IMG/VR virus record: IMGVR_UViG_3300050821_006049
Reading direction: 5' to 3' (one strand)
From: a virus
Length of the DNA stretch: 64,000 nt
Shown here one piece after another: positions 3,275-39,017 of the stretch. Within the stretch, counting starts at the first letter, position 1. Each line of letters starts with the position of its first letter. The translations under genes were made by a program, and so were the position numbers. The notes under the pieces were generated by a model. The model was not told where the DNA came from. It did not search any database and was given only the letters and a program-made list of their open reading frames with translations.

Positions 3275-3275
3275 A

Positions 3276-4694: not shown

Positions 4695-5320
4695 TTCAGC
4701 AGCGACTTCTCATAAGCGCCAGCAGCCGCATCGTAGCCGATGCGCTTGGCGACCATCTCGGCGTTGACCTGGTCGCACAACTCAAACTTGAATTGCGCGG
4801 CGTTGATAGACCGCGCCCATGCCTCGCCCGCCACGTAGATGCCGATGACCTCCAGCTGCACCTTGCGCGGATCGAGGTCGCGGTCGCGCTTACCGATTAC
4901 CACGAGATCCCAGACGATACCGCGCGGCTCCCAGGGTAATACGTCACAAACAAATATGCCCTGCGCGTTGTCGGTACGCAGATAGCGATACCGGCCGCCG
5001 CGCACCGCGAGCCGAAGGAACGGGACCAAACCCTCGGGTGTAGCGCGGGGATAGCGTTTCTTGATCCGGTCGAGCCCCCACGGCACAAGTTCCTCAATCT
5101 CGCTTTCCATGACCGGGCGGACGGTGTTCTGCTTGACGCCGCCAGACAGCGCGAACTCCCCTTCTGCCTGTTTGAGCGTGTAAAGCGGCGGCGGTTCCGC
5201 AGTCATCCGATCTAGCGTCGGGTTGGGCAATGTCGCCTCAACCTTCTGCGCCGTGATTATTGGATCGATCGGCGGCAGCGGAGCCAGATTTCTGATCATC
5301 CTCGCATGATGCTGAACCAT
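4691..5320 (-). CDS. Hypothetical virion-module protein (209 aa)
   Basis: Uninterrupted ORF in the operon frame pattern, with an ATGA overlap to the downstream gene. No family recognised (…RGGRYRYLRTDNAQGIFVCDVLPWEPRGIVWDLVVIGK…). Confidence 0.55.
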   Translation of the reverse strand: MVQHHARMIRNLAPLPPIDPIITAQKVEATLPNPTLDRMTAEPPPLYTLKQAEGEFALSGGVKQNTVRPVMESEIEELVPWGLDRIKKRYPRATPEGLVPFLRLAVRGGRYRYLRTDNAQGIFVCDVLPWEPRGIVWDLVVIGKRDRDLDPRKVQLEVIGIYVAGEAWARSINAAQFKFELCDQVNAEMVAKRIGYDAAAGAYEKSLLK

Positions 5321-5324
5321 TGTT

Positions 5325-5660
5325 TTACCCCGTCAACGCGATCTGCCACTTGCGGTGTTCGTCCGCGTGCAAAAAGATCCACGACGCTACCTCATCCGGC
5401 TTCTGAAAGTCCAGAACGCTCAAGTCATTGCCGCCGACCCCGAGAATGCCGTTGATCTGGTTGTGTGAAGCCTGATGGTTCAAAAGCCACCCGGTAACAT
5501 CCTCGGTCGGCAGCGGATCGAAGACGTATTGGCTCACCTGAATGTTGAACTTAGCGAGGATCGAGGCGGAAGTATCAATGTGGTCGGCGGCATTCGCCAG
5601 CGCGAACGCCGATATGTCGCCAGGCGTCGCCGGAACCGAGAAGAGGGTAGCTAGGCTCAT
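5325..5660 (-). CDS. Hypothetical virion-module protein (111 aa)
   Basis: Start taken at ATG 5658-5660 (MSLATLFSVPATPGDISAF...), which forms an ATGA overlap with the stop of the 749-aa gene. The first 74 codons of ORF 5325-5882 overlap that gene and were discarded. Confidence 0.5.
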   Translation of the reverse strand: MSLATLFSVPATPGDISAFALANAADHIDTSASILAKFNIQVSQYVFDPLPTEDVTGWLLNHQASHNQINGILGVGGNDLSVLDFQKPDEVASWIFLHADEHRKWQIALTG

Positions 5661-7909: not shown

Positions 7910-7983
7910 TCATAGTGGGCGGGCGCGGGAGGCGAGGATACGCCTCGCCGCGACCCTAACCACCAGCCCCAGAGGAGGGCGAG

Positions 7984-8439
7984 ATGGATAGCCACGACAT
8001 TATCGGATGGAGCAAAATTCCGCCAGACGGCGATAGTTCGTTTATTTGCTCGTGCGGCCAGAAAGCCCCACTTTCTGAATGGGGCGCCCACAAAGATGGG
8101 CCGCCTAAATATCCAGAACTGGCTAGGCGTATTGCTCGTGCGATCTGCATGGAAGACGATCCAGATTGCTACGCTCAAGAACTGGTGATAACGCAACCCG
8201 GAGAAAAACCCGAAAGCAAACCTCTTTGGGAATGGCATATTCCAAGAGCATTTGCCGTCCTCTATGCAATCCGGGAGCCAACCGAGGCGATGCGCGCGGC
8301 GGCTCGTAACCGAATTTGGGAATTTTTGTCGGACTACGCAGACTCTCATCCAGACCCGAAAGGCGAACATCCCGAAAGTGCCGAGCGGGTTGCCGCGGAT
8401 GTGTGGCGAGAGATGAGCGCCGCAGCTCTGAAGGAGTGA
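7984..8439 (+). CDS. Hypothetical protein, first gene of an antisense-oriented cassette inside the virion operon
   Basis: 151-aa ORF with a GAGGAGGG RBS just upstream. It lies on the opposite strand to both flanking structural genes. The first ~350 nt are visibly AT-richer. Carries the motif 'REPTEAMRAAARNRIWEF'. Confidence 0.6.
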   Translation: MDSHDIIGWSKIPPDGDSSFICSCGQKAPLSEWGAHKDGPPKYPELARRIARAICMEDDPDCYAQELVITQPGEKPESKPLWEWHIPRAFAVLYAIREPTEAMRAAARNRIWEFLSDYADSHPDPKGEHPESAERVAADVWREMSAAALKE

Positions 8440-10005: not shown

Positions 10006-11475
10006 CTAATTGTTACAATTGTACTTAACTAGGTAGTCTCCGGCCGGCAAGACCACCGGAGATGCCCAAAGAAATGCGACGTGGCTTGCCGGCCCGATTG
10101 TATCGTCCGCGCCACGCACGAAAGAATAGACGGTGAACGAGCCGGCATTGAAGCTAGGCCAAACCCCTGGCGACGGTCCGCCAATGGCTAGCGTAAAACT
10201 ACAGAGCCCGTTCAGGCCAGTGTCGCTAACCAAGATCGACGGGAAGCTCAGATAGAATGACCCAGTCGCCGCAGCGCTTGCCCCAGCCAGAATGTCAACC
10301 TTCCCAGCATATGGACCAGAGCCGTCTACAACCGAAACCGTTACGTTGCCGGTCGGCGAGGGAGAAGTTAGGGGGCATCCCACGTTACCGGCGACGCAGG
10401 GCGTGTTATAGCTATCGTCGCTGGCGTTGTTGATGCGCCCGCCGCTATAAAGAAAGCCAGTCCCACCCCCTCCTGGCCATTGCGGTGATTGCGTCAGGTA
10501 GAAAAGAAGCTGGCCGCCGTATTTTACTTGATACTCGTCGGTTACGACGGCGGTTCCCTGGAAAATGTTGGCCGGATTGATCTGGGTGATCGACGCCTCG
10601 ACATAGAACAGCGTCCCGAGCGTGGGGTTGCCGACAAAATTCAGATGGCCCGCGGATATCAGGCTGGACGCCCCCGAGCCGGAGACGGAGAGGAATGTCG
10701 CGTTGCCCGAGACGTTCTGATCGGCCCAAATCCCAAGATTGGAGCCGGAATTTTCGTTGTGCCAGATAGCAACGGTAGCCGGTCCCCAGGTGTTGCCGGC
10801 CAAGAGGTTGAGGGTGCCGCCGATCTGGACGAAGCCGGTTGAGCTACATCCCGATCCCGTGCCGCTGATCAGCGCCATGTTCATGATCGCCACCGTGGCG
10901 TGATCGCCGACGCCGATGGTGGCGCAGTCAGCGCTACCGCCGTTCCAATTCTCGGTGCCGCCGCCGTCGAAGATCAACTGCCCGCTATCTTGGACGGCAG
11001 GCGGGGCAATGGTCGGGTTGGGAAAGGAGTTGGCGCTTCCGAGCAACGGGCTGTTTACAAAGACGCTCTCATTCCACGTATTCGTCCCGCCAGCCAGCGC
11101 GTGAATTATGATATTCCCGCCCGCGGCGTTGAACAGAAAGGCGGAATTGACCGCTTGCGCCTTGGTCAAGCATGGCTGAGCGATGTAGATGCATAAATTC
11201 GTGCCGGAGCCCGGCGACCCACCATCATTTCCGAGCTGCGAGATGTAAAGATTGATCGGATTGCTGGTCAGGCCAAAGGCTCGGATATCGAGGACGCTGG
11301 AGAAGTACGGGCACCTGACCGTGGCGCCGCCTTGCGAGCACGGGACATATTCCGTGCCGAGGAGAGGCAGCAGTGCCGGCGCCAAGCATTGGATGCAGAT
11401 GCCGGATTGGGACAGCGCCACACCGCCGAAGCCCACCGCCATCATGGCGACCAAGGCCAGCAGGAATTTGCGCAT
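10006..11475 (-). CDS. Signal-peptide-bearing beta-helix-like protein (489 aa) inside the virion module
   Basis: Start at ATG 11473-11475 (ATGA overlap with the upstream stop): MRKFLLALVAMMAVGFGGVALS|QSGICIQCLAPALLPLLGTEYVPCSQGGATVRCP. The rest is G/N/S/T-rich with repetitive beta-strand-like segments (…NIIIHALAGGTNTWNESVFV…GNATFLSVSGSGASSLISAGHLNFVGN…), as in tailspike or pectate-lyase-type folds (inference). Confidence 0.6.
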   Translation of the reverse strand: MRKFLLALVAMMAVGFGGVALSQSGICIQCLAPALLPLLGTEYVPCSQGGATVRCPYFSSVLDIRAFGLTSNPINLYISQLGNDGGSPGSGTNLCIYIAQPCLTKAQAVNSAFLFNAAGGNIIIHALAGGTNTWNESVFVNSPLLGSANSFPNPTIAPPAVQDSGQLIFDGGGTENWNGGSADCATIGVGDHATVAIMNMALISGTGSGCSSTGFVQIGGTLNLLAGNTWGPATVAIWHNENSGSNLGIWADQNVSGNATFLSVSGSGASSLISAGHLNFVGNPTLGTLFYVEASITQINPANIFQGTAVVTDEYQVKYGGQLLFYLTQSPQWPGGGGTGFLYSGGRINNASDDSYNTPCVAGNVGCPLTSPSPTGNVTVSVVDGSGPYAGKVDILAGASAAATGSFYLSFPSILVSDTGLNGLCSFTLAIGGPSPGVWPSFNAGSFTVYSFVRGADDTIGPASHVAFLWASPVVLPAGDYLVKYNCNN

Positions 11476-12167
11476 CAGCGGCCTCCGGCTGAGGGGCCGA
11501 ACCCGGTATTTACGATCTTCGATGCGGCCTCGCGCGAAGCCCCGCCGCCGGGCGAGTAGAGCGGCAGCACGGTCGAGACGACCGCTCGCGTCCCCCACGA
11601 CATAAACTCGCCCCAGCGCTGCAAAAGGGCGAGCGCATCGGCGGTGCGCTGCTTGTCCTGATAGAGCAGGTACGCCGCAAAATACGGCACCGCTTCGGTC
11701 CAAGGATACGGGATGGCCTCGGGCGTCGTGTCATCGACCAAAATGACCGGACGGCCGATCAGGTCGAAACTCAGCGGATAGATGTTATCCGGGACGGGAT
11801 CGACGGAGATGGAGCCGAGCGGCCCCGGCTCTTGGATCGACCACATATTCGGGGCGCCGTGTGCCAAGGTTCGATAGGCAACGAACCACTCCCAAGGCCG
11901 ATACGCAAACTGCGCGCCTGAGATAAAACCTATCTGAGCGGTGAGGGCGCCTTGAACCCCGGTCTCGACCGAAAGGCCGGCAAGTGGATAAACCGCGCCC
12001 CCGACCGTCGTCGAGACGGCTCCAGTGTATCGAACGCAATGCGTGGCGGCGGCGATCTGACCGCGGCCAGCGTTGATCGCGGTGTCGACCTCCTGCGTCG
12101 AATAGACGGCGTTGGTAGGATCGTCCAGCAGCCTCAGCGTGACGATTTCATACGCGGTGAGCGCCAT
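11475..12167 (-). CDS. Virion structural protein, adaptor-like (230 aa), paralogue of 8750-9778
   Basis: MALTAYEIVTLRLLDDPTNAVYSTQEVDTAINAGRGQIAAATHCVRY...IPYPWTEAVPYFAAYLLYQ. Conserved N- and C-terminal blocks are shared with the 342-aa protein. Confidence 0.6.
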   Translation of the reverse strand: MALTAYEIVTLRLLDDPTNAVYSTQEVDTAINAGRGQIAAATHCVRYTGAVSTTVGGAVYPLAGLSVETGVQGALTAQIGFISGAQFAYRPWEWFVAYRTLAHGAPNMWSIQEPGPLGSISVDPVPDNIYPLSFDLIGRPVILVDDTTPEAIPYPWTEAVPYFAAYLLYQDKQRTADALALLQRWGEFMSWGTRAVVSTVLPLYSPGGGASREAASKIVNTGFGPSAGGR

Positions 12168-14052: not shown

Positions 14053-14661
14053 CTACCCTCCTATTGACAGGTAGCCAAGCGCCGTGTCGGCTATACTTAG
14101 CATTCCTGGAAGTTGCCCATATTCTGCTAATAAAGACCGGCAGAACTCGATCTTGTCTTCTACTCTCTGCCCACACGGCTGAGATGTGTTCCACAGTTCC
14201 AGATTCGCTGGATCGTTATTCAAACGATTGCCGTCTTTGTGATGGACATTTTCGTAACGAAGCAGGGGACGGCCCAAACGCTGCTCCATAACTTGGCGAT
14301 GCTCTAGAATCCTTTTGCCGCCACCATTCTTAAACGCCCGATACCCTTCGCCGGTGACATATCCAGACCGCTTTGCGTCGGCAGCGCACGCTCTCGAGCA
14401 ATACCGCGCATTATATTGAAACCCACGGGAACGCCCGCGTTCGTCAACACGCTTACGGCTAGCGGTCTTGCCGCAATGCCCGCAAATGAATTCTGGCGGC
14501 AAACTCAGGCGGATCGAAATCCCAGCACATTCTCGGGAACAATACAGGGGATCTCTCTGATGCTGTTTCCGATACGCAGTTAAATAGGACTCCTTCTTGA
14601 AGAAGTCCCCGCCACAGCGGCGGCACTGGAAGGTGTAGATCCTGGCGGCTGGAGAGCCCAT
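14053..14661 (-). CDS. HNH endonuclease with N-terminal zinc-ribbon repeats (homing-endonuclease-like insertion)
   Basis: 'YENVHHKDGNRLNNDPANLELW' is a classic HNH core. N-terminal CxxC pairs are 'FQCRRCGG', 'YCSRECAG', 'ICGHCGK', 'YCSRACAAD'. Visibly lower GC than neighbours. Sits between the scaffold and capsid genes. Confidence 0.85.
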   Translation of the reverse strand: MGSPAARIYTFQCRRCGGDFFKKESYLTAYRKQHQRDPLYCSRECAGISIRLSLPPEFICGHCGKTASRKRVDERGRSRGFQYNARYCSRACAADAKRSGYVTGEGYRAFKNGGGKRILEHRQVMEQRLGRPLLRYENVHHKDGNRLNNDPANLELWNTSQPCGQRVEDKIEFCRSLLAEYGQLPGMLSIADTALGYLSIGG

Positions 14662-20227: not shown

Positions 20228-22141
20228 TCACCACGCCCACCGTCCTTGCCGGCGAGCGCGGCGCGCATCGTCCCTGCGCTGGCGCTCCGCCATGCGGAAA
20301 TGGTTCTGCATCACATATGTCATATAATCCGGCCCGGCGCCATGCTCGTCCTCGGCATCGCGGGCGGTCTCGATGGCAAAAGTCCGGCCCGAAGCCTCCA
20401 ACTCGGCCCGCTCGAAATCGATCCACACCCGAGTCCCAAGCGCCAACGCCACCGCGCGATCGTCCTTGGCGTTGCCGTCGGCCTCGATCTGCATCCCCTT
20501 GCGCACCAGCTTTTTCATCTCGGCCAGCGCCGGAACCGAGTTCACCACGAGGTTGCCCATCATGTAGTGATCGCCCATAGAGTTCATAAGTACCGGCTTA
20601 TTGAACGCTGTAGTTTTCCATTGTATGCTCCACGAGCCTGATATAGCGTCCGGCCTGTGAAACAGATACTGGCTGACATTGGCGAGCGGCGAGGGAGGGC
20701 GGCGACCGTCCTGAGGGTCGTCCGCCTCATCGTCTTGGCGAGGCGCGACAAGCTTGCCGGTGTCCAGTAAGGTCTTGAGGTGGCGGAACTCGGTCATCAC
20801 CGCTTCGCCGGGACCGTTGATCTCCAGGATATAGCGGCAATTGCCATACCAGCCGCAGAGGTCGGCGAGAACCCAGGTAAACTGGAACGGCTGCATGTTG
20901 CGCACCGCGAACTCGGCGACTTGGACTAGCCGGTCGGCGTAGAGGCGGACGACTTGCAGGCAGAAACGGTCGGCGGTGTCGCTCGACGCATAGGCAGGAT
21001 CGGCGGCGACGACGTAGCGCCCGTTGGGGTGGGGCGGCTGCCACACCTTCAGTTGGGCGAGCCTGGCCACATCGACCTGATGCCGCCGCAACGCCAGGAA
21101 ATTGTCCCCGAAATAGTAAGTGTACGCCTTGAACAGTTGCTCCTGCGCCACCTTCATCGACTGATCAAGGGTCCGTCCCGGCAGAAAAGGCGAGCCCGAC
21201 ATGCGGAAGGCTTCTTCGGCATAAGACGGAAACTCGACCTCGATAATCTCGCCCTTACCCTCGTCGATCTCGCCGCTATCGGCGCGGCGTTGCGGGTCTT
21301 TGCGGTGACGATACCATGCCCACTGCTCCAAGGTGATCGTCCAGTCATAGGTTTCCTTGACGATCTTCGCGGTCTCGACCTCATCATCAGACAGGCGGTC
21401 GTAGCCGTAACGCTGGAACAGCGGCGTGCCCTTTGGGATCAGGTACTCGTCATGCTGCCACCAGCCGATAAACACCGCCCGCTTGGTCAGGTCGTCGGAG
21501 ATGGAATCCTGCCACGCATTCTCAAAAAGGTTATAGCCATGCGCCGTAGACTCGACGACGTAGAGCCGCCACGGATAGGTGTCCGACAGCGAGGACATCA
21601 GCGATTCCCAGCCCTCGACATCGCCATATTGCGCGGTCTCGGTCGAGTGCATGAAGTTCAGCGCTCGCGACCGGCCCAGCGCGCCCTTGCGCTTCTGGGT
21701 GCCGGCCACAAGGTAGTCGATCATCGAACCATTCTCGAACACCAGACCGTTGCGGTTGTGCTTGCGGATCGGCAGCGGATGCGATTTCGGCAGATAATCG
21801 AGGATCTCGGTGACCAACAGCCGCAGCTTCTCCTTGTTGGGGTCGTTGTCGGTGACTAAGGCGCCTTGCAGCCCCGGATAGAGGGCGCACCAGAACAGGT
21901 CGAGCAACAGGGTTAGAGTGGTGATCCCGAGCTGCCGGGCCTTTAGGATCACAAACCAGTGAATGCCGTTGGCAAGCCCATCGAAAATCTGGTCGAGCGC
22001 GTAACGCTGCGCTCGATAGGGGTCGATGATAGTCGGACCCGAGTTCTTAGAGACGATGGTGACGTGTTTTAGGAAGTCGTAGAAGGCTTCCTCGAAGGCG
22101 TCGCGGTGGAACCGGGTCGTCGACGGGACTACTGCGGACAT
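20228..22141 (-). CDS. terL: Terminase large subunit
   Basis: 637 aa. N-terminal ATPase has a Walker-A-like 'ILKARQLGITTLT' and a 'GALVTDND' Walker-B-like segment. The C-terminal nuclease half has an acidic 'YVVAADPAYASSD'. Overall layout is typical of TerL. Confidence 0.88.
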   Translation of the reverse strand: MSAVVPSTTRFHRDAFEEAFYDFLKHVTIVSKNSGPTIIDPYRAQRYALDQIFDGLANGIHWFVILKARQLGITTLTLLLDLFWCALYPGLQGALVTDNDPNKEKLRLLVTEILDYLPKSHPLPIRKHNRNGLVFENGSMIDYLVAGTQKRKGALGRSRALNFMHSTETAQYGDVEGWESLMSSLSDTYPWRLYVVESTAHGYNLFENAWQDSISDDLTKRAVFIGWWQHDEYLIPKGTPLFQRYGYDRLSDDEVETAKIVKETYDWTITLEQWAWYRHRKDPQRRADSGEIDEGKGEIIEVEFPSYAEEAFRMSGSPFLPGRTLDQSMKVAQEQLFKAYTYYFGDNFLALRRHQVDVARLAQLKVWQPPHPNGRYVVAADPAYASSDTADRFCLQVVRLYADRLVQVAEFAVRNMQPFQFTWVLADLCGWYGNCRYILEINGPGEAVMTEFRHLKTLLDTGKLVAPRQDDEADDPQDGRRPPSPLANVSQYLFHRPDAISGSWSIQWKTTAFNKPVLMNSMGDHYMMGNLVVNSVPALAEMKKLVRKGMQIEADGNAKDDRAVALALGTRVWIDFERAELEASGRTFAIETARDAEDEHGAGPDYMTYVMQNHFRMAERQRRDDARRARRQGRWAW

Positions 22142-22431
22142 TAGCGGAGAAAGGTCCAGAAACGGTTTCGTGACCCCGGCGGTCCCGAATTAGGGCGGAA
22201 GCGCCGGATAATGCGGCGACGAGGCACGTTCAAATGCCTCCAGGACGCCGTTCTGCGGCTTGCCGACCAGCCAGGCACAGCCGTCCTAAGCATCCTACGC
22301 AATTCCCACGGATTGCTCGCGGCGCTCTCGATCAGCGAGCAATAATCATCCACCCCCACCACCATGAATTCCGGGGCCTCACCGCCCGCATGTTCCGTTA
22401 TCGACCGCAGCAGACCGGACATCTCGCCCAT
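22141..22431 (-). CDS. Hypothetical protein upstream of TerL (96 aa; small-terminase position, unverified)
   Basis: Stop overlaps the TerL ATG (TAATG). The N-terminal half looks ordinary and the C-terminal half is very Arg-rich (…RRTASWRHLNVPRRRIIRRFRP…). Confidence 0.4.
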   Translation of the reverse strand: MGEMSGLLRSITEHAGGEAPEFMVVGVDDYCSLIESAASNPWELRRMLRTAVPGWSASRRTASWRHLNVPRRRIIRRFRPNSGPPGSRNRFWTFLR

Positions 22432-23057
22432 CAGCGCAAGCCCAAATTCCAGGTCTGCAATCCGAGCGGCGCAAACCCCTGCGGCCCCAAAGGGGCGTCG
22501 GTACGGTACTCATACCCCTCCAACATCGCGGCAGCCTTGTCCAGCGTCGCCGCCTGGCCTTCGATCGCCGCCAGTTGCCGGCGGGCGTCAGATAGCCGGG
22601 CGCGCATGATGGCGCCGACGCGGTCGGGCTTGCCCTTCGGTGCCCTGAAACGCGCGGCCACGGCTTCGTATTTCTCGACGATTACCCGGATCTGCCCGCA
22701 CTTGGCATCAAGTGCGCCACGCTGTTTGGCGATGTCCAGTCGTGCCAGGGCCAGTACATTCACCCGCGACAGGTCTTGCATCGCCGCCTGGATCGCGGCA
22801 TCGAGCGCTCGAGCCAGTATGTCGAGCACTGCCGCCAATTCCCTGTCGGCGTTCGCCGCGCCCTCATCTCCGGTTTCGTCGTAGCGGCGGCGGCGGTCGG
22901 GGTCGGCCAGCACCGCTTTGGCGTGCGCCAGCCGCTCGAACTCGGCGCGGTCACCACCATGATCGGGATGCGCCTTCTTCGCCCGCCGGCGATAGGCTCG
23001 GCCGATCTCTGCGGCGGTGGCGGACGGCGCAACACCAAGTTCGTCATACAAGGTCAT
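22431..23057 (-). CDS. J-domain (DnaJ-like) protein with coiled-coil C-terminus
   Basis: Start at ATG 23055-23057. 'LYDELGVAPSATAAEIGRAYRRRAKKAHPDHGGDRAEFERLAHAKAVLADPDRRRRYDETG' contains the HPD tripeptide and J-domain helices. Confidence 0.85.
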   Translation of the reverse strand: MTLYDELGVAPSATAAEIGRAYRRRAKKAHPDHGGDRAEFERLAHAKAVLADPDRRRRYDETGDEGAANADRELAAVLDILARALDAAIQAAMQDLSRVNVLALARLDIAKQRGALDAKCGQIRVIVEKYEAVAARFRAPKGKPDRVGAIMRARLSDARRQLAAIEGQAATLDKAAAMLEGYEYRTDAPLGPQGFAPLGLQTWNLGLR

Positions 23058-23308
23058 GAACCTGTGATCTTTTCCGAAAACAATTCGGCGGGAAGGCGAA
23101 GACACATCCAGCCGTCACTGTTGGTCCTGATTGCCCCCGGCTCAGCCAATATCTCGATGAAGCCGCTTCCGTCTGGCTCGAACTCTATCCGATAGGATAT
23201 TAGCAAATTATATGGCGGATGATCACCCACCGAAGGAGCCCAACTGATCTCCCCATGGGAGATTGGGACCACCACTTTCATTGGCCTCTCCTTCTCGGTA
23301 TCCATCAT
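23054..23308 (-). CDS. Hypothetical protein (84 aa)
   Basis: ORF with ATGA overlaps at both ends. No family recognised. Confidence 0.45.
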   Translation of the reverse strand: MMDTEKERPMKVVVPISHGEISWAPSVGDHPPYNLLISYRIEFEPDGSGFIEILAEPGAIRTNSDGWMCLRLPAELFSEKITGS

Positions 23309-23439
23309 AAAACCCTACTACAGAGATATCCCGCGGTCACCGCCGCCAGCATGCCCGTAACCGGCAGGTGCAGCGGGAACGACAGCACAGCCTCGATGCA
23401 GATCACGAGGAAGACGGCGCGGGCCGCCCGGTCATTCAT
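23305..23439 (-). CDS. Small hydrophobic peptide (44 aa), possibly a detached C-terminal helix of the Wzy-like protein
   Basis: My translation is MNDRAARAVFLVICIEAVLSFPLHLPVTGMLAAVTAGYLCSRVL. ATGA overlaps at both ends. Below the ORF-track cutoff. Confidence 0.3.
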   Translation of the reverse strand: MNDRAARAVFLVICIEAVLSFPLHLPVTGMLAAVTAGYLCSRVL

Positions 23440-24326
23440 TGCTTCCTCCGCCAGATCAGCACCGGGATTGCCAGCAACGGCAGCGCGCCGATGCCCAACT
23501 CGTAAGCTGCCTGCAAGGAGTCGCTATGGGCATACACCAGCACCGGGTTGCGCGCCGCGAACGAGCCGATGCCATGGCCAAACGGAGTGATGGCGGTAAG
23601 GGTATCGGCCCACAGCACGATGCGGAACAGCGCATCGGCCGCTTTCTCCCGGCCCATCAACAGCAAGAGCCCGAGGCCGGCCACAAGGGTAGCAGCCATC
23701 CCCATTAGCCGCCAGCGCCACCGCATAGGCAAGCCGTAAAGGAGCCCGACAGCAGCGGCGAACAACGCGACCCGCGAACCGCACAGCAGGAGCGGAATCA
23801 ACAATACCGCCGTCATCGTATACCGATGCTGAAGGATCGCCCACACCAGCACGGGGGCCACGGTTTCCGCCAGCACGTCTCGGTTATAGAATAGCCCTGC
23901 CGGCGGGGCACTCTGCGGGATGCCGGACCAGCCCAAAGCTTGCGGAACGCACAGCAGCGCCGAAACCATCAAACCAACCGCGAAGAAGGCCATGACGAGG
24001 TCGAACGACCGTGCCCCTACGATGCCGGCCCCGGCCACGAACGCCACCGCCAAAATCCCCATCTGAGAGAGTTGCTGCAACGCACCAAGCCGGTCGGGAG
24101 CCCATGCGATCGACATCGCCGCGTAGATCAGCCCAGCCACCAGATATACCCAGGCTCGACCGCAGCGCCAGGCGGCCCAAGAAGACACCACCGTCAGCGG
24201 CAATCCAACCGCCAGAACCAACCAACGCGGCATTATCATACCACCCGCCGGGAACCACGCCACCGTGACCAAGAATGCTACCGCGCCCAAACCTAAACCG
24301 TGATCGTCGCATCGACGATCATCCAC
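23436..24326 (-). CDS. O-antigen ligase/polymerase-like (Wzy_C-type) polytopic membrane protein
   Basis: Multiple hydrophobic helices. 'GLFYNRDVLAE', 'LCGSRVALFAAAVGLL' and 'GHGIGSFAARNPVLVYAHSDSLQAAYELGIGA' follow the Wzy_C/O-antigen-ligase pattern (G.f.N.N, SR.a, G.G.gsf….aHn..Lq…E.G). The start is uncertain: GTG 24326 chosen, ATG 24239 or the ORF-track start 24476 are also possible. Confidence 0.65.
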   Translation of the reverse strand: MDDRRCDDHGLGLGAVAFLVTVAWFPAGGMIMPRWLVLAVGLPLTVVSSWAAWRCGRAWVYLVAGLIYAAMSIAWAPDRLGALQQLSQMGILAVAFVAGAGIVGARSFDLVMAFFAVGLMVSALLCVPQALGWSGIPQSAPPAGLFYNRDVLAETVAPVLVWAILQHRYTMTAVLLIPLLLCGSRVALFAAAVGLLYGLPMRWRWRLMGMAATLVAGLGLLLLMGREKAADALFRIVLWADTLTAITPFGHGIGSFAARNPVLVYAHSDSLQAAYELGIGALPLLAIPVLIWRRKQ

Positions 24327-24402
24327 GCCATGATCGGGGGCCGACGGCCCAGCCAGTCGCGAGGCCCCAGCAAACGCCAGCGCCTTGGCTACGAATGCCA
24401 GA

Positions 24403-24666
24403 TCATCCCAGCGGGAGATGCAGCGCGTTCCCAAGCCAGCACAGCGCCTCCGCGCCGAGCAGTGCCGAGGCCACAATGATCAATAGACTCAGAGCCCGAT
24501 CAACCCGCCGTACCACCGTCCAGCGATCCAGGCCAGCCAGCTTATATCGGATAACCGGGAAGCGGCACATGAACTCCCGGCTAAGCGCCTCATGATCAAT
24601 TATGCCCTGAACGGGGCGAGCAAGAAGGGGGGTGTTCGGCTCAGCCCGGTCGACCCCCTTGGTCAT
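24403..24666 (-). CDS. Hypothetical protein with C-terminal TM helix (87 aa)
   Basis: Last 87 codons of ORF 24403-25170, starting at ATG 24664-24666 (ATGA overlap with the PEP-CTERM gene stop): MTKGVDRAEPNTPLL…ALSLLIIVASALLGAEALCWLG. Confidence 0.35.
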   Translation of the reverse strand: MTKGVDRAEPNTPLLARPVQGIIDHEALSREFMCRFPVIRYKLAGLDRWTVVRRVDRALSLLIIVASALLGAEALCWLGNALHLPLG

Positions 24667-25310
24667 GGGCCACCGAGGCCGACGGAGCTGCCGCGCCGGT
24701 TGCGATTCAGCCAGCCCCACAGCGCCAGCAAGCCGAAGGCGAGCAAGCCGAGAGTTTGCGGCTCGGGCAGCGGCGCGCCCAGATCCACGATCTCGCCCGA
24801 GGACCACGTCAGACCAGCATCGGTGTCCCAATTTTCCAGGGTCAGCGCCGTCGTCTCGGCAATCATGTCGAGTTCGGCGAGGCCCGAGGTGTTGTACGAC
24901 CCGAGAAAGTCTGCGTCGCCGGTCGCGACGTACTTGAATTCGCCGACGATGTGCGGGTTGGTAGAGCCGTTGTTGAGATTGGTCCAGTCGACCGTACCGC
25001 TGATGTGATCGCCATCGCCAAATAGGATGCTCAGCGTCTCGCCCGGCATGGTCTGAGAAATTACCGGGAAGACCCCGCCCGCCCCCGGCCCGGTCGCCAG
25101 CGCCTCGGGGCCGAACGAGGCGACCCCGACATCGCTTTGGAACAGCGCCGACTCGTGATATGGCGCGCACGACATCGCCAAGGGATGACTGCTCCCCGTC
25201 CCGGCGAGGTCGCAGGCGGCGACCGGGCTGTTGCCCAAAGTAATCTGGTCGGCATGGGCCGAGGTGATGGTCAGCGCCGCAAAGCCTGCGGCCAGGATCA
25301 TTTCGCGCAT
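24663..25310 (-). CDS. Secreted PEP-CTERM-domain protein
   Basis: Signal peptide MREMILAAGFAALTITSAHA|DQ. The C-terminus 'PLPEPQTLGLLAFGLLALWGWLNRNRR' has P-E-P, a TM helix and a basic cluster, which is the PEP-CTERM sorting signal. Confidence 0.8.
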   Translation of the reverse strand: MREMILAAGFAALTITSAHADQITLGNSPVAACDLAGTGSSHPLAMSCAPYHESALFQSDVGVASFGPEALATGPGAGGVFPVISQTMPGETLSILFGDGDHISGTVDWTNLNNGSTNPHIVGEFKYVATGDADFLGSYNTSGLAELDMIAETTALTLENWDTDAGLTWSSGEIVDLGAPLPEPQTLGLLAFGLLALWGWLNRNRRGSSVGLGGP

Positions 25311-25320
25311 GTCGGTTCCC

Positions 25321-25767
25321 CTAGAAGTTGCAGTGGCCGCTCAGGAACACAGCGGTCCCAGCGGGAATTACGTCTGCAAGATTGAAGTCGATATAGACCA
25401 GACGCTGCCCGTTGACCACTGCCGAGCCGCCGCCCTGAAACTCGGGGCCGATCGCAGGAGACCCGGCGCCTGGCCAGCCGACGCTACCCACCTGCGGCGC
25501 GAAATCACAGTGCTCCGAGAAAGCTGGGCCGAACCCCGGTAGGAAGAACGCCACCGAGGGGCGAAGAGTCTTGCCATCGCCCCAGAGCCGTAGCGTGTAG
25601 ACCCCGGCTCCCGTTGACGGAGCGGGCGACATATCGACCTGCCGCCAGCCAGGACAATCGCCGACACCGGACCCGCCGGGAGGGGCATTGCCGGGACATC
25701 CGGCGTGGGCCGCGCCAGAAGCCGCGAGCACCAAGGCGAGCGCGGTAGAGGTGAGCGCGTGCTTCAT
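25321..25767 (-). CDS. Secreted Cys-containing protein (148 aa)
   Basis: MKHALTSTALALVLAASGAAHA|GCPGN… is a signal peptide. Four Cys in the mature part. No family recognised. Confidence 0.55.
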   Translation of the reverse strand: MKHALTSTALALVLAASGAAHAGCPGNAPPGGSGVGDCPGWRQVDMSPAPSTGAGVYTLRLWGDGKTLRPSVAFFLPGFGPAFSEHCDFAPQVGSVGWPGAGSPAIGPEFQGGGSAVVNGQRLVYIDFNLADVIPAGTAVFLSGHCNF

Positions 25768-26153
25768 GTTGGTTCCTTTCCGAGGGACCGAATACCGTCA
25801 GCAATGTCTTTGGCCAAATCGGTGGCCAGCTTTTCGGGTGTGACGAATTTTATCTCAATCTCAATGCCATCTAACAGAGCCGCGCCCCCGTCGGCGATCT
25901 TAGCGCATTCCTCGATCGCCTCGCGCCGAGCCGCGGCCAGTAATGCGAGGGGGCTGATTTCGCGACCAGTTCGCCAATATGGCCCCGCAAGCGCGATCCA
26001 TTTCTCGCGCTCCGCGAGCCGGCCTTCCTCGCGCGCGTCGGCGAATTGATTAGCCAAGTCCATGATCACCAACGCCGACGCCACCGTGCAAGATGCTTTA
26101 AGCCAAGCTACGGCCATCTCGCGGTCTCGATCGGTTACGACAAGTGTGCCCAT
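25764..26153 (-). CDS. Hypothetical protein (129 aa)
   Basis: ORF with an ATGA overlap downstream. '…AARREAIEECAKIADGGAALL…' helical protein. Confidence 0.5.
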   Translation of the reverse strand: MGTLVVTDRDREMAVAWLKASCTVASALVIMDLANQFADAREEGRLAEREKWIALAGPYWRTGREISPLALLAAARREAIEECAKIADGGAALLDGIEIEIKFVTPEKLATDLAKDIADGIRSLGKEPT

Positions 26154-26680
26154 CTCTCGCCCTTCATAATCTTGAGAACGTGACCACGGGTAACGCCGAG
26201 CGATGCGGCCAGTGATTCAGCCTGACTTAGGGGTGATGACCGTATTTTCCGCACGTCATCGTCAGTGAGCGTGCTTTGTGAATTGGCAGATCCTTTGTGA
26301 TTTCCAAATAATCCTTTGTTGATGCAATCGGCAATATTATCGCGGTTCGTCCCTACGAATAGGTGATCTGGGTTTATGCACAACTTGTTATCGCATTTGT
26401 GACACACGAACATTCCTGCGGGGATGTCGCCCTTGAATTCCAAGTACGACGCCCGGTGAGTAGATTCCGAATGTCTTGTGCCATCTGACGCTGAACCGAT
26501 GGTTATAGACCCATATCCGTTCTTTGTGGCCCCCGTCCAATTCCAGCAGCCGACATTATCTATGTCGATATGCCGAAGTAGGCGATTTTTTACTGGTGCC
26601 GCCTTAGGGCCGCCGACCCACCAATGCTCAGCCATGGCCGTCATCGCCTCCAATGGTAGCTGCTGGATCAAGGCAAACAA
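26135..26680 (-). CDS. HNH_3-type homing endonuclease with C-terminal HTH-like tail
   Basis: 'CWNWTGATKNGYGSI…THRASYLEFKGDIPAGMFVCHKCDNKLCINPDHLFVGTNRDN' is the classic HNH_3 signature. Visibly AT-richer than its flanks. The start could be ATG 26644 or 26635. Confidence 0.85.
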   Translation of the reverse strand: MFALIQQLPLEAMTAMAEHWWVGGPKAAPVKNRLLRHIDIDNVGCWNWTGATKNGYGSITIGSASDGTRHSESTHRASYLEFKGDIPAGMFVCHKCDNKLCINPDHLFVGTNRDNIADCINKGLFGNHKGSANSQSTLTDDDVRKIRSSPLSQAESLAASLGVTRGHVLKIMKGERWAHLS

Positions 26681-26858
26681 CTGCCCGCTGGAATGAAGGC
26701 CTGGAGCGGTTCAGCATGCTCGCCCGCGACATCGCGTCGAATTTACCCTGAGCTTCGGCAGCCGATCTGGCGCGCACAATTGTCATGCCAGAAAGGGTCC
26801 ATGCCACGGCGTAATCGCCGTATAGCGTCTGGACCTTTGGCGCGGCCGGCTCAGCCAC
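26628..26858 (-). CDS. Hypothetical protein (76 aa), 3' end possibly disrupted by the HNH insertion
   Basis: GTG start in a GTGGCTGA overlap. The N-terminal 45 aa look ordinary (…VQTLYGDYAVAWTLSGMTIVRARSAAEAQGKFDAM…) and the tail overlaps the HNH 5' end. Confidence 0.3.
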   Translation of the reverse strand: MAEPAAPKVQTLYGDYAVAWTLSGMTIVRARSAAEAQGKFDAMSRASMLNRSRPSFQRAVVCLDPAATIGGDDGHG

Positions 26859-26915
26859 GACTGTCCCTCACATGCGCCACAATCGCCAGGCCAAGACCTA
26901 TAAGCACCGGGATAA

Positions 26916-27155
26916 TCAGCTCGAGCACGGCTTCCACCCCGCATTCCGCTCCGGCTCGGGACATGCCGGGCACAAGTGACGATTGCCGCCGCAGTCTTTC
27001 CACCCAAGATCGACCGCCCAACCCGGTAGCGCTCGACTAACCGTGCGTCTCTCAAGGTCCAGATCCTGACCGCAGCCATCGCATCGGACAAACTGCGCAC
27101 GCGGGCCGCAATAAAATTCCAGCCCATCTACGATGGCGCGGACGGACTCAGCCAC
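26916..27155 (-). CDS. Small zinc-ribbon protein (about 79 aa)
   Basis: GTG 27153-27155 in a GTGGCTGA overlap with the upstream stop. 'FVRCDGCGQDL…NRHLCPACPEPE' has two CxxC pairs. Confidence 0.35.
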   Translation of the reverse strand: MAESVRAIVDGLEFYCGPRAQFVRCDGCGQDLDLERRTVSRALPGWAVDLGWKDCGGNRHLCPACPEPERNAGWKPCSS

Positions 27156-37189: not shown

Positions 37190-37411
37190 ATGCCCGAACG
37201 CCTCAAGCTGAGCGCCTTCGACTCCGAGGATGAGCGGCGGCGCTGGAAGATCATCCGCCTTGATATGGTAAACGGCGGCGAAGTTCCGGGCCTGATAATA
37301 GCGGCAACCAAGGAAACCGGCCTGTGCCTCATGCAGACCAGCGCTGACGAAGCTTCCCAACAGGAATACAACTTCGGCCCCAACGGGCTGCGCATCGTGA
37401 GGGTGGGATGA
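37190..37411 (+). CDS. Small hypothetical protein (73 aa)
   Basis: ATG 37190, 1 nt after the previous stop (MPERLKLSAFDSEDERRRWKIIRLDMVNGG…). ATGA overlap with the endolysin. Confidence 0.4.
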   Translation: MPERLKLSAFDSEDERRRWKIIRLDMVNGGEVPGLIIAATKETGLCLMQTSADEASQQEYNFGPNGLRIVRVG

Positions 37412-38007
37412 TGATTGACGTGGTGCTTGACCTCTCCCATTGGCAATCGCCCGTCAACTTCGCGGCTGTGGAGGCAAGCGGCGTGCTCGCCGTAATCTTG
37501 AAGGCGACGCAAGGCGCGAGTTGGGTGGACTTTACCTTTATCGAGCGCAGCTCCGCCGCCCGAGCTGCTGGTTTGCTAGTGGGCGCCTATCACTTCGCCG
37601 ACGCATCGGACCCATGCGCTCAGGTTGGCAATTTCTTGGGTATAGCCGGCTCTATGCCTCGGTTGGCCATCGACATCGAAGCGAATGGCATGGGGGACAC
37701 GGTCTCGATCGCGCAAGCCGCCGAGCTGGTAGCCCGCCTGCAAATGGCTACCGGGAAGCTCCCGCTTGTCTACATGGGGCGATGGGGACCGACCGGCGAT
37801 GGTGCCGGTCTACCAAATTCGGTTCTGACTCGCTGTCCGCTGTGGCTGCCGGAGTATGGTCCTAACCCAGTCCCGCCAGATGGGTGGGATATGTGGACTC
37901 TGTGGCAATACACATCGAGCGGCGATTGCCCTGGGGTCGGCGGTATCTGTGACCGAAGTCAGTTCAGCGGGACTGCCGACGATCTTGCGGCGTGGTGGGC
38001 AACCTAA
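37408..38007 (+). CDS. GH25 muramidase (endolysin)
   Basis: 'DLSHWQSPVNFAAVEASGVLAVILKATQGASWVDFTF…AGLLVGAYHFA…LAIDIE' matches the glycoside hydrolase family 25 lysozyme signature (D.SHWQ, KATEG, GAYHF, lD.E). Confidence 0.9.
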   Translation: MMIDVVLDLSHWQSPVNFAAVEASGVLAVILKATQGASWVDFTFIERSSAARAAGLLVGAYHFADASDPCAQVGNFLGIAGSMPRLAIDIEANGMGDTVSIAQAAELVARLQMATGKLPLVYMGRWGPTGDGAGLPNSVLTRCPLWLPEYGPNPVPPDGWDMWTLWQYTSSGDCPGVGGICDRSQFSGTADDLAAWWAT

Positions 38008-38548
38008 TCGCCGATGCCGGCCTGACAAACAGCGGTCCCGGCCCACGCCGCGAGGCCGCTATGGGGTCAATCAGCGCTTCGGCGTAAACCAGCACGGCAA
38101 GTGCATCAGCCTCATCTTCGGTCACCGGAGCCCATCCGTAGCGCTCGCATACGCGGCGGGTCGCGGCTTTCTTCGCCTCCCGCCCACCCCACCGGGCCTG
38201 CCCGGTGAAGTGCTTTGCGACCGAGGCCGTGTCTACCTCGCGACACTTCGCCCCCCAATTGTGCGCCACCATCTGAGCGATCATGGCCAGGCCGTAGAGC
38301 CGGCGGATGGTGGCGTTGTTGACCGAGATCGCGCCGCGCGGAATAAACGGCGCCTCAAAGACGGCCCAATCCGGCCCCCCGCACTCGCCCATGATGGCGT
38401 CCAGCCAGTCGTGGAACAAGACGCCCACTTTGCCGTCATCGTCCCCCGGTTTGCCGAATCGTTTGTGCCGCCACACGGGCCGCTCGCCCGGCAGCGCGAA
38501 CGCCGCACCCGTCGTGGTAGCTATGTCGAGCGCGAGGATGCCGGGCAA
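37964..38548 (-). CDS. ruvC: RuvC-like Holliday-junction resolvase
   Basis: 'ILALDIATTTGAAF', '…VFEAPF…' and 'TEDEADALAVLVYA' are the acidic catalytic motifs of phage RuvC-type resolvases. TTG 38546-38548, 1 nt after the gapR-like stop, is preferred over ATG 38638. The 3' end overlaps the convergent endolysin by 44 nt. Confidence 0.7.
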   Translation of the reverse strand: MPGILALDIATTTGAAFALPGERPVWRHKRFGKPGDDDGKVGVLFHDWLDAIMGECGGPDWAVFEAPFIPRGAISVNNATIRRLYGLAMIAQMVAHNWGAKCREVDTASVAKHFTGQARWGGREAKKAATRRVCERYGWAPVTEDEADALAVLVYAEALIDPIAASRRGPGPLFVRPASAIRLPTTPQDRRQSR

Positions 38549-38549
38549 T

Positions 38550-39017
38550 TTAAGCGATCGGCGGCAGATCGCCTTCGAGATGAGCCTGAGAAGCCGCGCG
38601 AAGCGCTTCAGCTGCCCTCGTCGGGACGTTACGAACAATGGCCGCCTGCCCGAGAGGAAGATCAGAAAGCATGCCCAGCGCCTGTTTGTAGATATCGATC
38701 ATATCCTGCTCGGCCTGCAAATCGTCCGCATCACGGCGGCGCACCGCGATCACCTTGCGGATGATCTTGTTCTCAAAGCCCGCATCCTTGGCCGCTTTGT
38801 AAATTTCCTTGATCTTTTCCGAAAGATCGCGGCGGACCTCTTCTGCGCCCTCGATTTCCTCGACGAAGCCAGCGAGCCGCTTGGCCGCATTATCGCCGAG
38901 GCGGCCGTTCTCGATGACCGAGACCGGGCCGGTATCCGAGCCGTTATCCTTCCGGGGCCGGCCACGTCCGCGCTTCGGCCCTACTTCGTCAACCAGTCGC
39001 CTTGCCATCTTCTGCAC
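38550..39017 (-). CDS. gapR: GapR/DUF2312-family nucleoid-associated DNA-binding protein homologue
   Basis: 'RLAGFVEEIEGAEEVRRDLSEKIKEIYKAAKDAGFENKIIRKVIAVRRRDADDLQAEQDMIDIYKQALGM' is colinear with Caulobacter GapR as I recall it ('…[28 protein letters not shown]…EEDAILDLYLSAIG'). It also has an N-terminal AT-hook-like 'KRGRGRPRK'. Confidence 0.8.
   Translation of the reverse strand: MQKMARRLVDEVGPKRGRGRPRKDNGSDTGPVSVIENGRLGDNAAKRLAGFVEEIEGAEEVRRDLSEKIKEIYKAAKDAGFENKIIRKVIAVRRRDADDLQAEQDMIDIYKQALGMLSDLPLGQAAIVRNVPTRAAEALRAASQAHLEGDLPPIA

Follow-up and report, generated by a model that had tools for sequence, protein, structure and literature searches.

By remodelling the host surface, certain phage genes determine both the aggregation of cells and the range of phages able to infect them afterwards; those known so far comprise a small number of polymerases and glucosyltransferases, carried by temperate phages that infect pathogens. 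Phage lambda carries lom and bor as morons in late operons, which encode exported host-envelope proteins that are dispensable for virion building, and the lambda morons come with their own promoters and terminators. In bacteria, proteins ending in a PEP-CTERM sorting signal are expected only where an exosortase (EpsH/Xrt) is encoded; the PEP-CTERM/exosortase system and its associated ligase-like protein TIGR03097 were reportedly described by Haft et al. in 2006. Here we analyse a stretch of 64,000 bases (hereafter the window, to which all positions refer unless another contig is named) of a metagenomic phage contig of ~65.3 kb, IMG/VR record IMGVR_UViG_3300050821_006049, in which genes for an exported protein with a PEP-CTERM-like tail and for a Wzy_C-like membrane protein lie between an HNH endonuclease gene and the packaging genes (Table 1).

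Several described systems share part of this arrangement. The D3/O16 unit (Iap, Wzy-beta and Oac) includes a phage-borne polytopic Wzy_C protein that crosses the membrane about 10 times and whose HX10G motif holds an essential His, has a small hydrophobic-protein gene alongside, and acts on the host surface glycan (PMC4815439). The window cluster shares the polytopic protein, the His motif and the small neighbour, the latter being an 87-amino-acid (aa) protein that is a positional analogue only of D3 Iap, but it shows no tblastn similarity to D3, has no O-acetylase gene and contains a Wzy-like gene that is split. Moreover, D3 is temperate and its converting unit is constitutive in O2 and O16 strains, whereas here no integrase was found among the open reading frames (ORFs) tested, which is a weak test, and the genes belong to the packaging/structural array. 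The closest described arrangement in a cultured phage, although not a homologous one, is that of VG_p25-p28 in Variovorax phage VarioGold, where genes for a signal-peptide protein and two small membrane proteins lie ahead of, and co-oriented with, that for an O-antigen-ligase-family protein with 10 segments, and which its authors read as moron-like cargo (PMC9658991). No homology between the two clusters was found at the level of hidden Markov models (HMMs); the VarioGold cluster lies opposite to the late genes, beside attP and the integrase gene, and VG_p28 has no PEP-CTERM tail.

PglL, PilO/TfpO, PglS and TfpM likewise have a Wzy_C-type enzyme gene adjoining a co-oriented gene for a small exported protein (PMC3643930, PMC9829042), and their conserved R, R and H follow the same order as in the family described below; the differences are that PglL_A (PF15864) is matched by none of 128 family members, that the exported neighbours are not type IV pilins and that the genes are phage-borne. 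With PEP-CTERM/exosortase loci the cluster has in common an N-terminal signal peptide, a C-terminal PEP followed by helix and Arg, a weak THxN similarity of the passenger and a Wzy_C-type gene nearby, and it departs from them in being phage-encoded, in having no exosortase in the window, in model scores at threshold and in nine residues past the basic cluster. Our search of the literature turned up no tailed phage reported to encode a PEP-CTERM protein, the nearest case being a PEP-CTERM domain in a Dehalococcoides mobile element (one 2026 preprint). Phage-borne Wzy_C proteins are already known (D3 Wzy-beta, VarioGold), but a large clade of them in structural operons has not been described.

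We tentatively read the cluster, with confidence just short of even, as a mosaic of separately mobile or acquired accessory genes acting on the host envelope, placed within the packaging/structural array of a circular phage of ~65 kb. A sequence-only reading of the window had instead counted five coupled genes between the HNH and J-domain genes and taken them for a single PEP-CTERM and surface-glycan module that exploits the host exosortase. All five exist as minus-strand ORFs, on which the ORF listing and the public gene calls agree, but the interval holds seven genes, a 129-aa and an 84-aa one having been omitted. Along the minus strand the order is HNH_3 endonuclease, 129 aa, 148 aa, 215 aa, 87 aa, the 332-aa polytopic gene, 44 aa, 84 aa, J-domain protein, 96 aa and the large terminase subunit (TerL).

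The 215-aa protein was said to carry a signal peptide and a textbook PEP-CTERM tail. The signal peptide is real (MREMILAAGFAALTITSAHA followed by DQIT, with cleavage predicted between AHA and DQIT; A20, D21, Q22, I23 and T24 around this site are invariant in the family), and so is the three-part tail, which reads PLPEPQTLGLLAFGLLALWGWLNRNRR and then runs on for 9 additional residues; by HMM score, however, it is borderline and not textbook. TIGR02595 gives 16.3 bits with a cut-off of 16.0, passing by 0.3 bits, and Pfam PF07589 gives 20.1 bits with a cut-off of 20.7, 0.6 short, i.e. the tail stands just above the one model and just below the other. Within the family, 3 of 5 members reach the Pfam PEP-CTERM model at E<=0.1, and 1 of 5 reaches TIGR02595. 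Four homologues, found among 5.8 billion proteins at 54-58% identity and all from phage-like contigs, retain the [S/P]EP..T[L/I] motif, the helix and the basic residue, and in the five-member alignment (A3) E183, P184, T186 and R205 are invariant. A tail pattern defined as xEP, 12-22 hydrophobic residues and a basic pair, all in the last 50 aa, occurs in 1 of the 585 stop-to-stop ORFs of the window, and among 2004 ORFs of other loci it has only two matches, both of them homologues of the 215-aa protein. Hence, the conserved residues and the rarity of the pattern mark the tail as a conserved, specific feature and not a chance hydrophobic end.

Residues 123-198 of the same protein weakly resemble NF038125, the THxN PEP-CTERM family (3 of 5 members match, best E 2.3e-5), and this resemblance falls in the last third of the passenger domain. 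The passenger looks beta-rich; the AlphaFold2 (AF2) model of the protein is poor, with a predicted local distance difference test score (pLDDT) of 46, and PDB sequence profiles gave spurious matches only. Relatives of the family were found neither in IMG/VR, nor in GTDB species-representative genomes (narrow peptide pattern), nor in GenBank phages. As for an exosortase, the window's only polytopic ORF is the Wzy-like one, no other polytopic protein that could serve being encoded there.

The polytopic protein, which has 332 aa according to the public calls and 346 aa if the longest ORF is taken, with a start likely at TTG 24290 or GTG 24326 judging from homologues, had been called Wzy_C-like. 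This holds in the sense of a divergent Wzy_C relative with its R/R/H motifs kept, and not of a curated member, since the window protein scores 23.1 bits (E 7e-5) against Pfam Wzy_C (PF04932), below the gathering score of 31.7. There are 8 hydropathy segments in the large piece and 1 in the 44-aa piece, in keeping with a superfamily whose inner-membrane proteins have about 10-12 helices. Twelve homologues from a word-indexed search share PRW, PPAGLFYNR, SR, R...W, GxG, AHSDxLQxxYELG and FPLHxPA, and an exhaustive profile search reached 2539 representative clusters (50%-identity clusters) at E<=1e-3 and 872 at E<=1e-30. Wzy_C is matched by 45 of 128 family members at E<=0.01 (best E 1.4e-14). 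Among NCBIfam models the only related one matched is that of the exosortase-associated ligase, TIGR03097 (PEP_O_lig_1), reached by 2 of the 128 (best E 6.6e-6); the window protein matches no NCBIfam model, TIGR03097 included. The idea that the polytopic protein is itself an exosortase was rejected, since the family lacks an invariant Cys and its members, while matching Wzy_C, in no case match an exosortase model.

Near-invariant in the family are R173, R219 and H251-X10-G262 (numbered as in P0003), equivalent to R221, R271 and H303-X10-G314 of the window protein. They correspond, in the same order and with similar local motifs, to R215, R288 and H338 of E. coli WaaL (family and WaaL, respectively: LCxSR-A-LL and LTQTR-ATLL; SAxxR-L and SLGAR-L; AHSDxLQ and LHNEIIE), which are essential in that enzyme and conserved in PglL (PMC3643930). 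HMM and hhalign alignments to WaaL pair SR with R215 and AHSD with H338, neither being significant alone. Taken as sequence signatures, R/R/H and HX10G support a putative periplasm-facing glycan transfer from a polyprenyl-pyrophosphate donor; polymerase, ligase and protein O-oligosaccharyltransferase are indistinguishable by sequence (PMC3643930). The AF2 model, built on an alignment of 12 sequences, is all-helical (pLDDT 76.5), and Foldseek searches with it gave a best E of 0.67 in the PDB and of 0.19 in BFVD; PDB sequence-profile searches with the family reached no relevant chain. The family has no PHROG, tblastn finds no relative in any GenBank phage, and a narrow pattern scan of GTDB species-representative genomes recovered none.

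What had been listed as an independent 44-aa hydrophobic peptide is instead the conserved C-terminal helix of this enzyme, severed by a 1-nt frame change. In alignments it covers residues 280-319 of the homologue in contig L003 and 292-330 of that in L007, and it retains the family's near-invariant F, P, P and G, and homologues with a complete C-terminus read through as a single polypeptide. At the junction the large frame ends in ...TGG CGG AGG AAG CAA TGA and the small one, ATG AAT GAC..., begins one base earlier, the two overlapping in ATGA, with the ribosome-binding site GGAGGAAG preceding the small piece's ATG. The break falls within WRRKQ/MNDRAAR, a loop of positive charge that is probably cytoplasmic; no homopolymer run occurs at the site, and the split is common to the Logan and ENA assemblies of the contig. 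This may be a recent gene split that possibly still yields a two-piece enzyme, made plausible by the small piece's own ribosome-binding site; the transferase would then be divided into a piece of 284-346 aa, depending on the start codon, and one of 44 aa. For annotation, the lesson is that a "small hydrophobic peptide" adjoining a membrane-enzyme gene may be a severed part of that enzyme.

Wzy-like loci were sought with a DNA pattern and a smaller alignment. Of about a dozen contexts recovered, all those long enough to judge are phage late or structural regions. The gene comes after capsid and head-associated genes in L003, L007, L013, L017, L019 and L026, after the classical series of small terminase subunit (TerS), TerL, portal, protease and capsid in L047, and directly after a 770-aa portal-sized gene in L032-L036; in L038 it follows a fragment resembling a beta-helix tailspike, and in L045 a peptidoglycan-binding hydrolase gene is found on the same contig. 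The placement of the cluster, presented earlier as undescribed, is thus real but recurrent: a late/structural position is the rule in every Wzy-like context recovered, and an analogous moron-like cluster is known in VarioGold (PMC9658991). Usually the Wzy-like gene comes straight after one for a small exported protein: in nine loci the gene immediately upstream, co-oriented with it, encodes a 131-176-aa protein with a typical signal peptide. By BLAST these exported neighbours fall into four or more sets that share no detectable similarity; they carry ordinary Sec-type signal peptides, and the largest neighbour family (A6) shows no homology to the window's 148-aa or 215-aa proteins. A shared acceptor motif in these neighbours, PS[DT]G, was considered and rejected, because shuffled sequences commonly share it to that extent. 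At 6735-9053 of L047, which has an HK97-type head module, a 265-aa protein encoded upstream of the Wzy-like gene and its signal-peptide neighbour gives a faint MptE-like (PF01973) match and may be a further glycan-related gene.

The 215-aa family is found in five other phage contigs. Its gene follows a GH25 endolysin gene and several small genes in L031 and L042, is near a family-A DNA polymerase gene in L030, and lies among small genes in L040 and L041. A profile of the Wzy-like family (A5) detects no Wzy-like gene in L030, L031, L040 and L042, L041 being outside that search, and the tail pattern has no match in any other locus carrying a Wzy-like gene. The two families hence move independently among phages, which argues against a single co-evolved PEP-CTERM and glycan module; the locus appears better described as a cargo hot-spot between the homing-endonuclease-like HNH gene and the packaging genes. 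Consistent with such a hot-spot, just five small genes precede the terminase of a distant TerL relative. Transfer of such cargo among phages may be assisted by homing endonucleases. A second HNH_3 homing-endonuclease-like gene is present in the window's leftward array (14053-14661, minus strand), and in the 102-kb phage contig L003 an HNH_3/AP2 endonuclease gene (7252-8277) is located three genes upstream of the Wzy-like gene. In L042, a phage contig of 53.7 kb, a 347-aa protein with a DGD motif and a proline-rich tail is encoded directly after the PEP-CTERM homologue (10773-11816), and no solved relative of it was found.

Of the late-operon placement put forward by the sequence-only reading, the embedding in an unbroken co-directional array is borne out. 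The cluster genes overlap by 1-32 nt with a single 10-nt gap (public gene calls, same contig), and the leftward array runs from ~28.8 kb without a true gap, the only sizeable interruption in the calls being occupied by a zinc-ribbon ORF that was probably overlooked by the gene caller (Table 1). No sigma-70-like promoter site was detected on the cluster strand, and terminator-like hairpins occur at shuffle level. With overlapping genes, a gapless array and no promoter-like site on the strand, co-transcription of the cluster with the packaging genes is plausible. The cluster thereby resembles lambda lom and bor in having exported envelope proteins among late genes, and differs from them in that no promoter or terminator of its own was detected. 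The G+C content at third codon positions (GC3) is 0.74-0.82 in the cluster ORFs, 0.79 in TerL and 0.84 in the portal-sized gene. That the cargo is phage-borne also stands (TerL, a portal-sized protein, tail lysozyme, primase-helicase and GH25 endolysin are present), as does the claim that exported and membrane proteins are encoded; no PHROG, defence-system or lysis annotation falls in the cluster, and in PADLOC the HNH gene is the sole match, with no defence system found in the cluster.

Two units may be distinguished in the way these genes would act. The 215-aa protein would be exported through the Sec pathway, ending in its PEP-CTERM-like signal, and a host exosortase would then cleave the signal and place the protein at the cell surface; surface display via the host exosortase seems the natural reading of the conserved tail. 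The Wzy_C-superfamily inner-membrane transferase would work like WaaL, Wzy-beta or PglL, moving a glycan at the periplasmic face from host undecaprenyl-pyrophosphate to an exported partner protein or a surface polymer. An altered cell surface would be the likely effect, with other phages excluded or receptors masked. Concerning the acceptor, that the gene recurs beside genes for diverse small exported proteins speaks somewhat for an enzyme acting on its neighbour as acceptor, a pairing which known serotype-converting polymerases do not show (PMC4815439). A bolder proposal, which we regard as improbable, is that many uncultured tailed phages carry a self-sufficient periplasmic protein-glycosylation cassette (a Sec-exported acceptor plus a dedicated Wzy_C-like O-oligosaccharyltransferase) in their structural operons, here joined to an exosortase-fixed acceptor; if true, the phage would build its own surface glycoprotein late in infection, leading to phage exclusion, receptor masking or cell aggregation, and would encode the first exosortase substrate from a tailed phage. 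Should the conserved tail function as a PEP-CTERM signal, phages would be able to supply substrates to the exosortase pathway, itself associated with the formation of flocs and exopolysaccharide (floc formation in Zoogloea is cited in PMC12642866). The Wzy_C-like family, for its part, comprises hundreds of 50%-identity clusters, sits in environmental-phage structural operons in the contexts recovered, and has no PHROG, GenBank-phage relative or curated family.

Several observations weigh against this interpretation of the two units. The PEP-CTERM HMM support is marginal, 9 residues extend beyond the basic cluster, and the tail of the 215-aa protein might be no more than a membrane anchor. The transferase gene, being interrupted, may be dead; its product lies below the Pfam Wzy_C threshold, Foldseek gives no solved or viral structural match, WaaL is matched at motif level only and not significantly, and no PDB chain is reached by sequence profile. 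In the window, the gene directly upstream of the enzyme encodes the tail-anchored 87-aa protein and not a signal-peptide protein, the exported proteins sitting one and two genes farther upstream than the 87-aa gene. Finally, the restriction of the Wzy-like family to phages rests on about a dozen contexts, compared with hundreds of clusters, and the GTDB scans used narrow peptide patterns.

Four other explanations have to be weighed against the mosaic. In the integrated module of the sequence-only reading the five genes form one unit, whose enzyme would represent, in phages, the equivalent of the exosortase-A-associated "O-glycosylation ligase" and would glycosylate the PEP-CTERM protein, and perhaps the 148-aa one too, before sorting by the host exosortase. 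The co-directional, overlapping genes for the exported proteins and the Wzy_C-like enzyme agree with it, as do the TIGR03097 matches, the recurrence in other phages of a small exported protein followed by a Wzy_C-like gene, and the fact that O-oligosaccharyltransferase genes often adjoin acceptor genes (PMC3643930). We nevertheless consider it quite unlikely: the two families occur apart (in the four homologue loci searched there is no Wzy-like gene, and no other Wzy-like locus has the tail pattern), the exported partners elsewhere are not homologous to the 148-aa or 215-aa proteins, the window enzyme does not match TIGR03097, and the 87-aa gene separates the PEP-CTERM gene from the enzyme gene. 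A serotype conversion of the D3/epsilon15 type is unlikely too, though less so. The Wzy_C-like protein would here be an alternative O-antigen or exopolysaccharide polymerase, the 87-aa protein an Iap-like inhibitor of the host polymerase, and the exported proteins unrelated cargo. Against this stand the lack of tblastn similarity to any GenBank phage, D3-like ones included, the failure of the family HMM to reach VarioGold VG_p25, the lack of an O-acetylase gene (no acetylase domain falls in the cluster), the lack of an integrase among the ORFs tested, itself a weak test, and a recurrent partner that elsewhere is a soluble exported protein of 131-176 aa and not a short inhibitor peptide. In its favour, known phage-borne Wzy_C proteins are polymerases with about 10 segments and HX10G (PMC4815439), a motif present in the family here, a small hydrophobic-protein gene lies immediately before the enzyme gene, and prophage-encoded conversion of surface polysaccharide is also reported for Acinetobacter capsules (PMC13228068).

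The interruption of the transferase gene brings up decay: the frame change would have inactivated the Wzy-like gene, the tail would be a mere membrane anchor, no exosortase being involved, and the cargo would have little or no present function. A stop codon does interrupt a gene whose complete homologues are uninterrupted, the PEP-CTERM scores are marginal, and the 148-aa protein is an orphan. Decay is distinctly improbable, however, as both pieces are open with all family-invariant residues intact, a strong ribosome-binding site and ATG stand exactly at the overlap for the small piece, the break is placed in a positively charged loop, E, P, T and R of the tail are conserved among proteins merely 54-58% identical, and GC3 of all ORFs is as high as in their essential neighbours. 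Partial lysis machinery, in which the 129-aa and 148-aa proteins would be an inner/outer-membrane spanin pair and the 87-aa protein holin-like, in a position as in lambdoid phages, is the least probable of the four, and very improbable. Compared with the architecture of spanins, an anchored helical protein followed, with ATGA coupling, by a secreted AHAG/C protein with a Pro/Gly-rich start does resemble separated spanin genes, and no holin or spanin was recognised adjoining the GH25 endolysin gene. Yet the endolysin is 12 kb distant and on the opposite strand, no PHROG lysis match falls in the cluster, HAGC, with His at position -3, makes a poor lipobox, the mature 148-aa protein (~125 aa, four Cys) is large for an outer-membrane spanin, and the Wzy-like and PEP-CTERM genes are left unexplained. 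The whole cluster as a lysis cassette was rejected, with the GH25 endolysin at 37.4 kb on the plus strand and no PHROG lysis matches.

Table 1. Features of the cluster and of the phage genes discussed, in order of transcription for the leftward array.
Feature	Coordinates	Strand	Basis or remark
Zinc-ribbon ORF, ~80 aa, CxxC...CxxC pattern	26916-27155	-	Inside the 289-nt "gap" 26858-27148 of the public calls
HNH_3 homing-endonuclease-like gene, upstream boundary	26135-26680	-	Pfam HNH_3 E 7e-12; PADLOC homing-endonuclease models
129-aa gene, between HNH gene and exported-protein genes	25764-26153	-	ORF listing, hydropathy
148-aa exported protein	25321-25767	-	Signal peptide MKHALTSTALALVLAASGAAHA followed by GC (cleavage AHA/G)
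215-aa exported protein, PEP-CTERM-like C-terminal sorting signal	24663-25310	-	Signal peptide, HMMs, homologues
Tail of 215-aa protein, residues 180-206: PLPEP, helix QTLGLLAFGLLALWGWL, NRNRR	24693-24773	-	Family alignment A3, pattern control
87-aa protein, single C-terminal membrane helix (tail-anchored)	24403-24666	-	Hydropathy segment, residues 55-73
Wzy_C-superfamily polytopic protein, N-terminal major fragment, ~9 helices	23436-24476	-	Pfam, motifs, homologues
44-aa ORF, detached C-terminal helix of Wzy-like protein	23305-23439	-	-1 frame, ATGA overlap, homologue alignment
84-aa soluble protein, between split Wzy-like gene and J-domain gene	23054-23308	-	ORF listing
J-domain (DnaJ-like) protein	22431-23057	-	Pfam DnaJ domain E 2e-15
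96-aa gene	between J-domain gene and TerL	-	Gene order
Large terminase subunit (TerL)	20228-22141	-	PHROG 2; 38-40% identity to uncultured "Manatee Spring" phages
GH25 endolysin	37408-38007	+	Best phage matches Wolbachia WO and Rhizobium phages, 34-40% identity

Regarding the remaining cluster genes, the 148-aa protein is, as first described, secreted, its signal peptide being confirmed, and its mature part contains four Cys. It is an orphan whose sole match among 5.8 billion proteins is itself, with no Pfam, NCBIfam, PHROG or PADLOC match, and its start overlaps the stop of the 129-aa gene through ATGA. The description of the 87-aa product as a membrane protein likewise holds, with one C-terminal membrane helix; its gene has an ATGA overlap with the 215-aa gene and lies directly upstream of the Wzy-like gene. 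The 129-aa protein has a weakly hydrophobic N-terminus, and the charged region after it reads helical by eye. No Pfam, NCBIfam, PHROG or PADLOC family is matched by the 87-aa, 129-aa or 84-aa proteins.

The contig was assembled twice independently, as Logan SRR7094833_64491 (65,309 bp) and as ENA ERZ27253777 k141_5349627 (65,420 bp). The two versions are differently permuted, the ends of the ENA contig lying inside a gene of the cluster studied here. From this permutation it follows that the genome is essentially complete and either circular or terminally redundant; it is referred to here as a circular tailed phage genome of ~65 kb. Besides the genes of Table 1 the window encodes a 564-aa portal-sized protein, a 695-aa protein with a tail-lysozyme domain, a primase-helicase, a PD-(D/E)XK exonuclease and a repressor-like helix-turn-helix protein; no tRNA genes were found in it. 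The cluster region has no DNA-level match in GenBank phages, and a scan of IMG/VR with TerL found no relatives. The J-domain gene is two genes upstream of TerL, and its product matches several PHROGs that have no assigned function. The GH25 endolysin gene is isolated among apparently early-region genes, distant from the structural array, and a RuvC-like ORF (37964-38638, minus strand) overlaps its 3' end; its best matches could be taken as a faint hint of an alphaproteobacterial host.

Two further observations concern genes elsewhere in the genome. The 1314-aa protein encoded at 48578-52522 on the minus strand has patchy similarity to a 1690-aa protein (2609-7681) of L031, the phage contig that carries a 215-aa homologue, and a GH25 endolysin is also common to L031 and the window phage, so that the two have several genes in common besides the 215-aa one. 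Finally, a 212-aa ORF at 61393-62031 on the plus strand, antisense to a 969-aa gene, shows three hydrophobic segments and a GC3 of 0.77, and may be either a frame artefact or a genuine overlapping gene.

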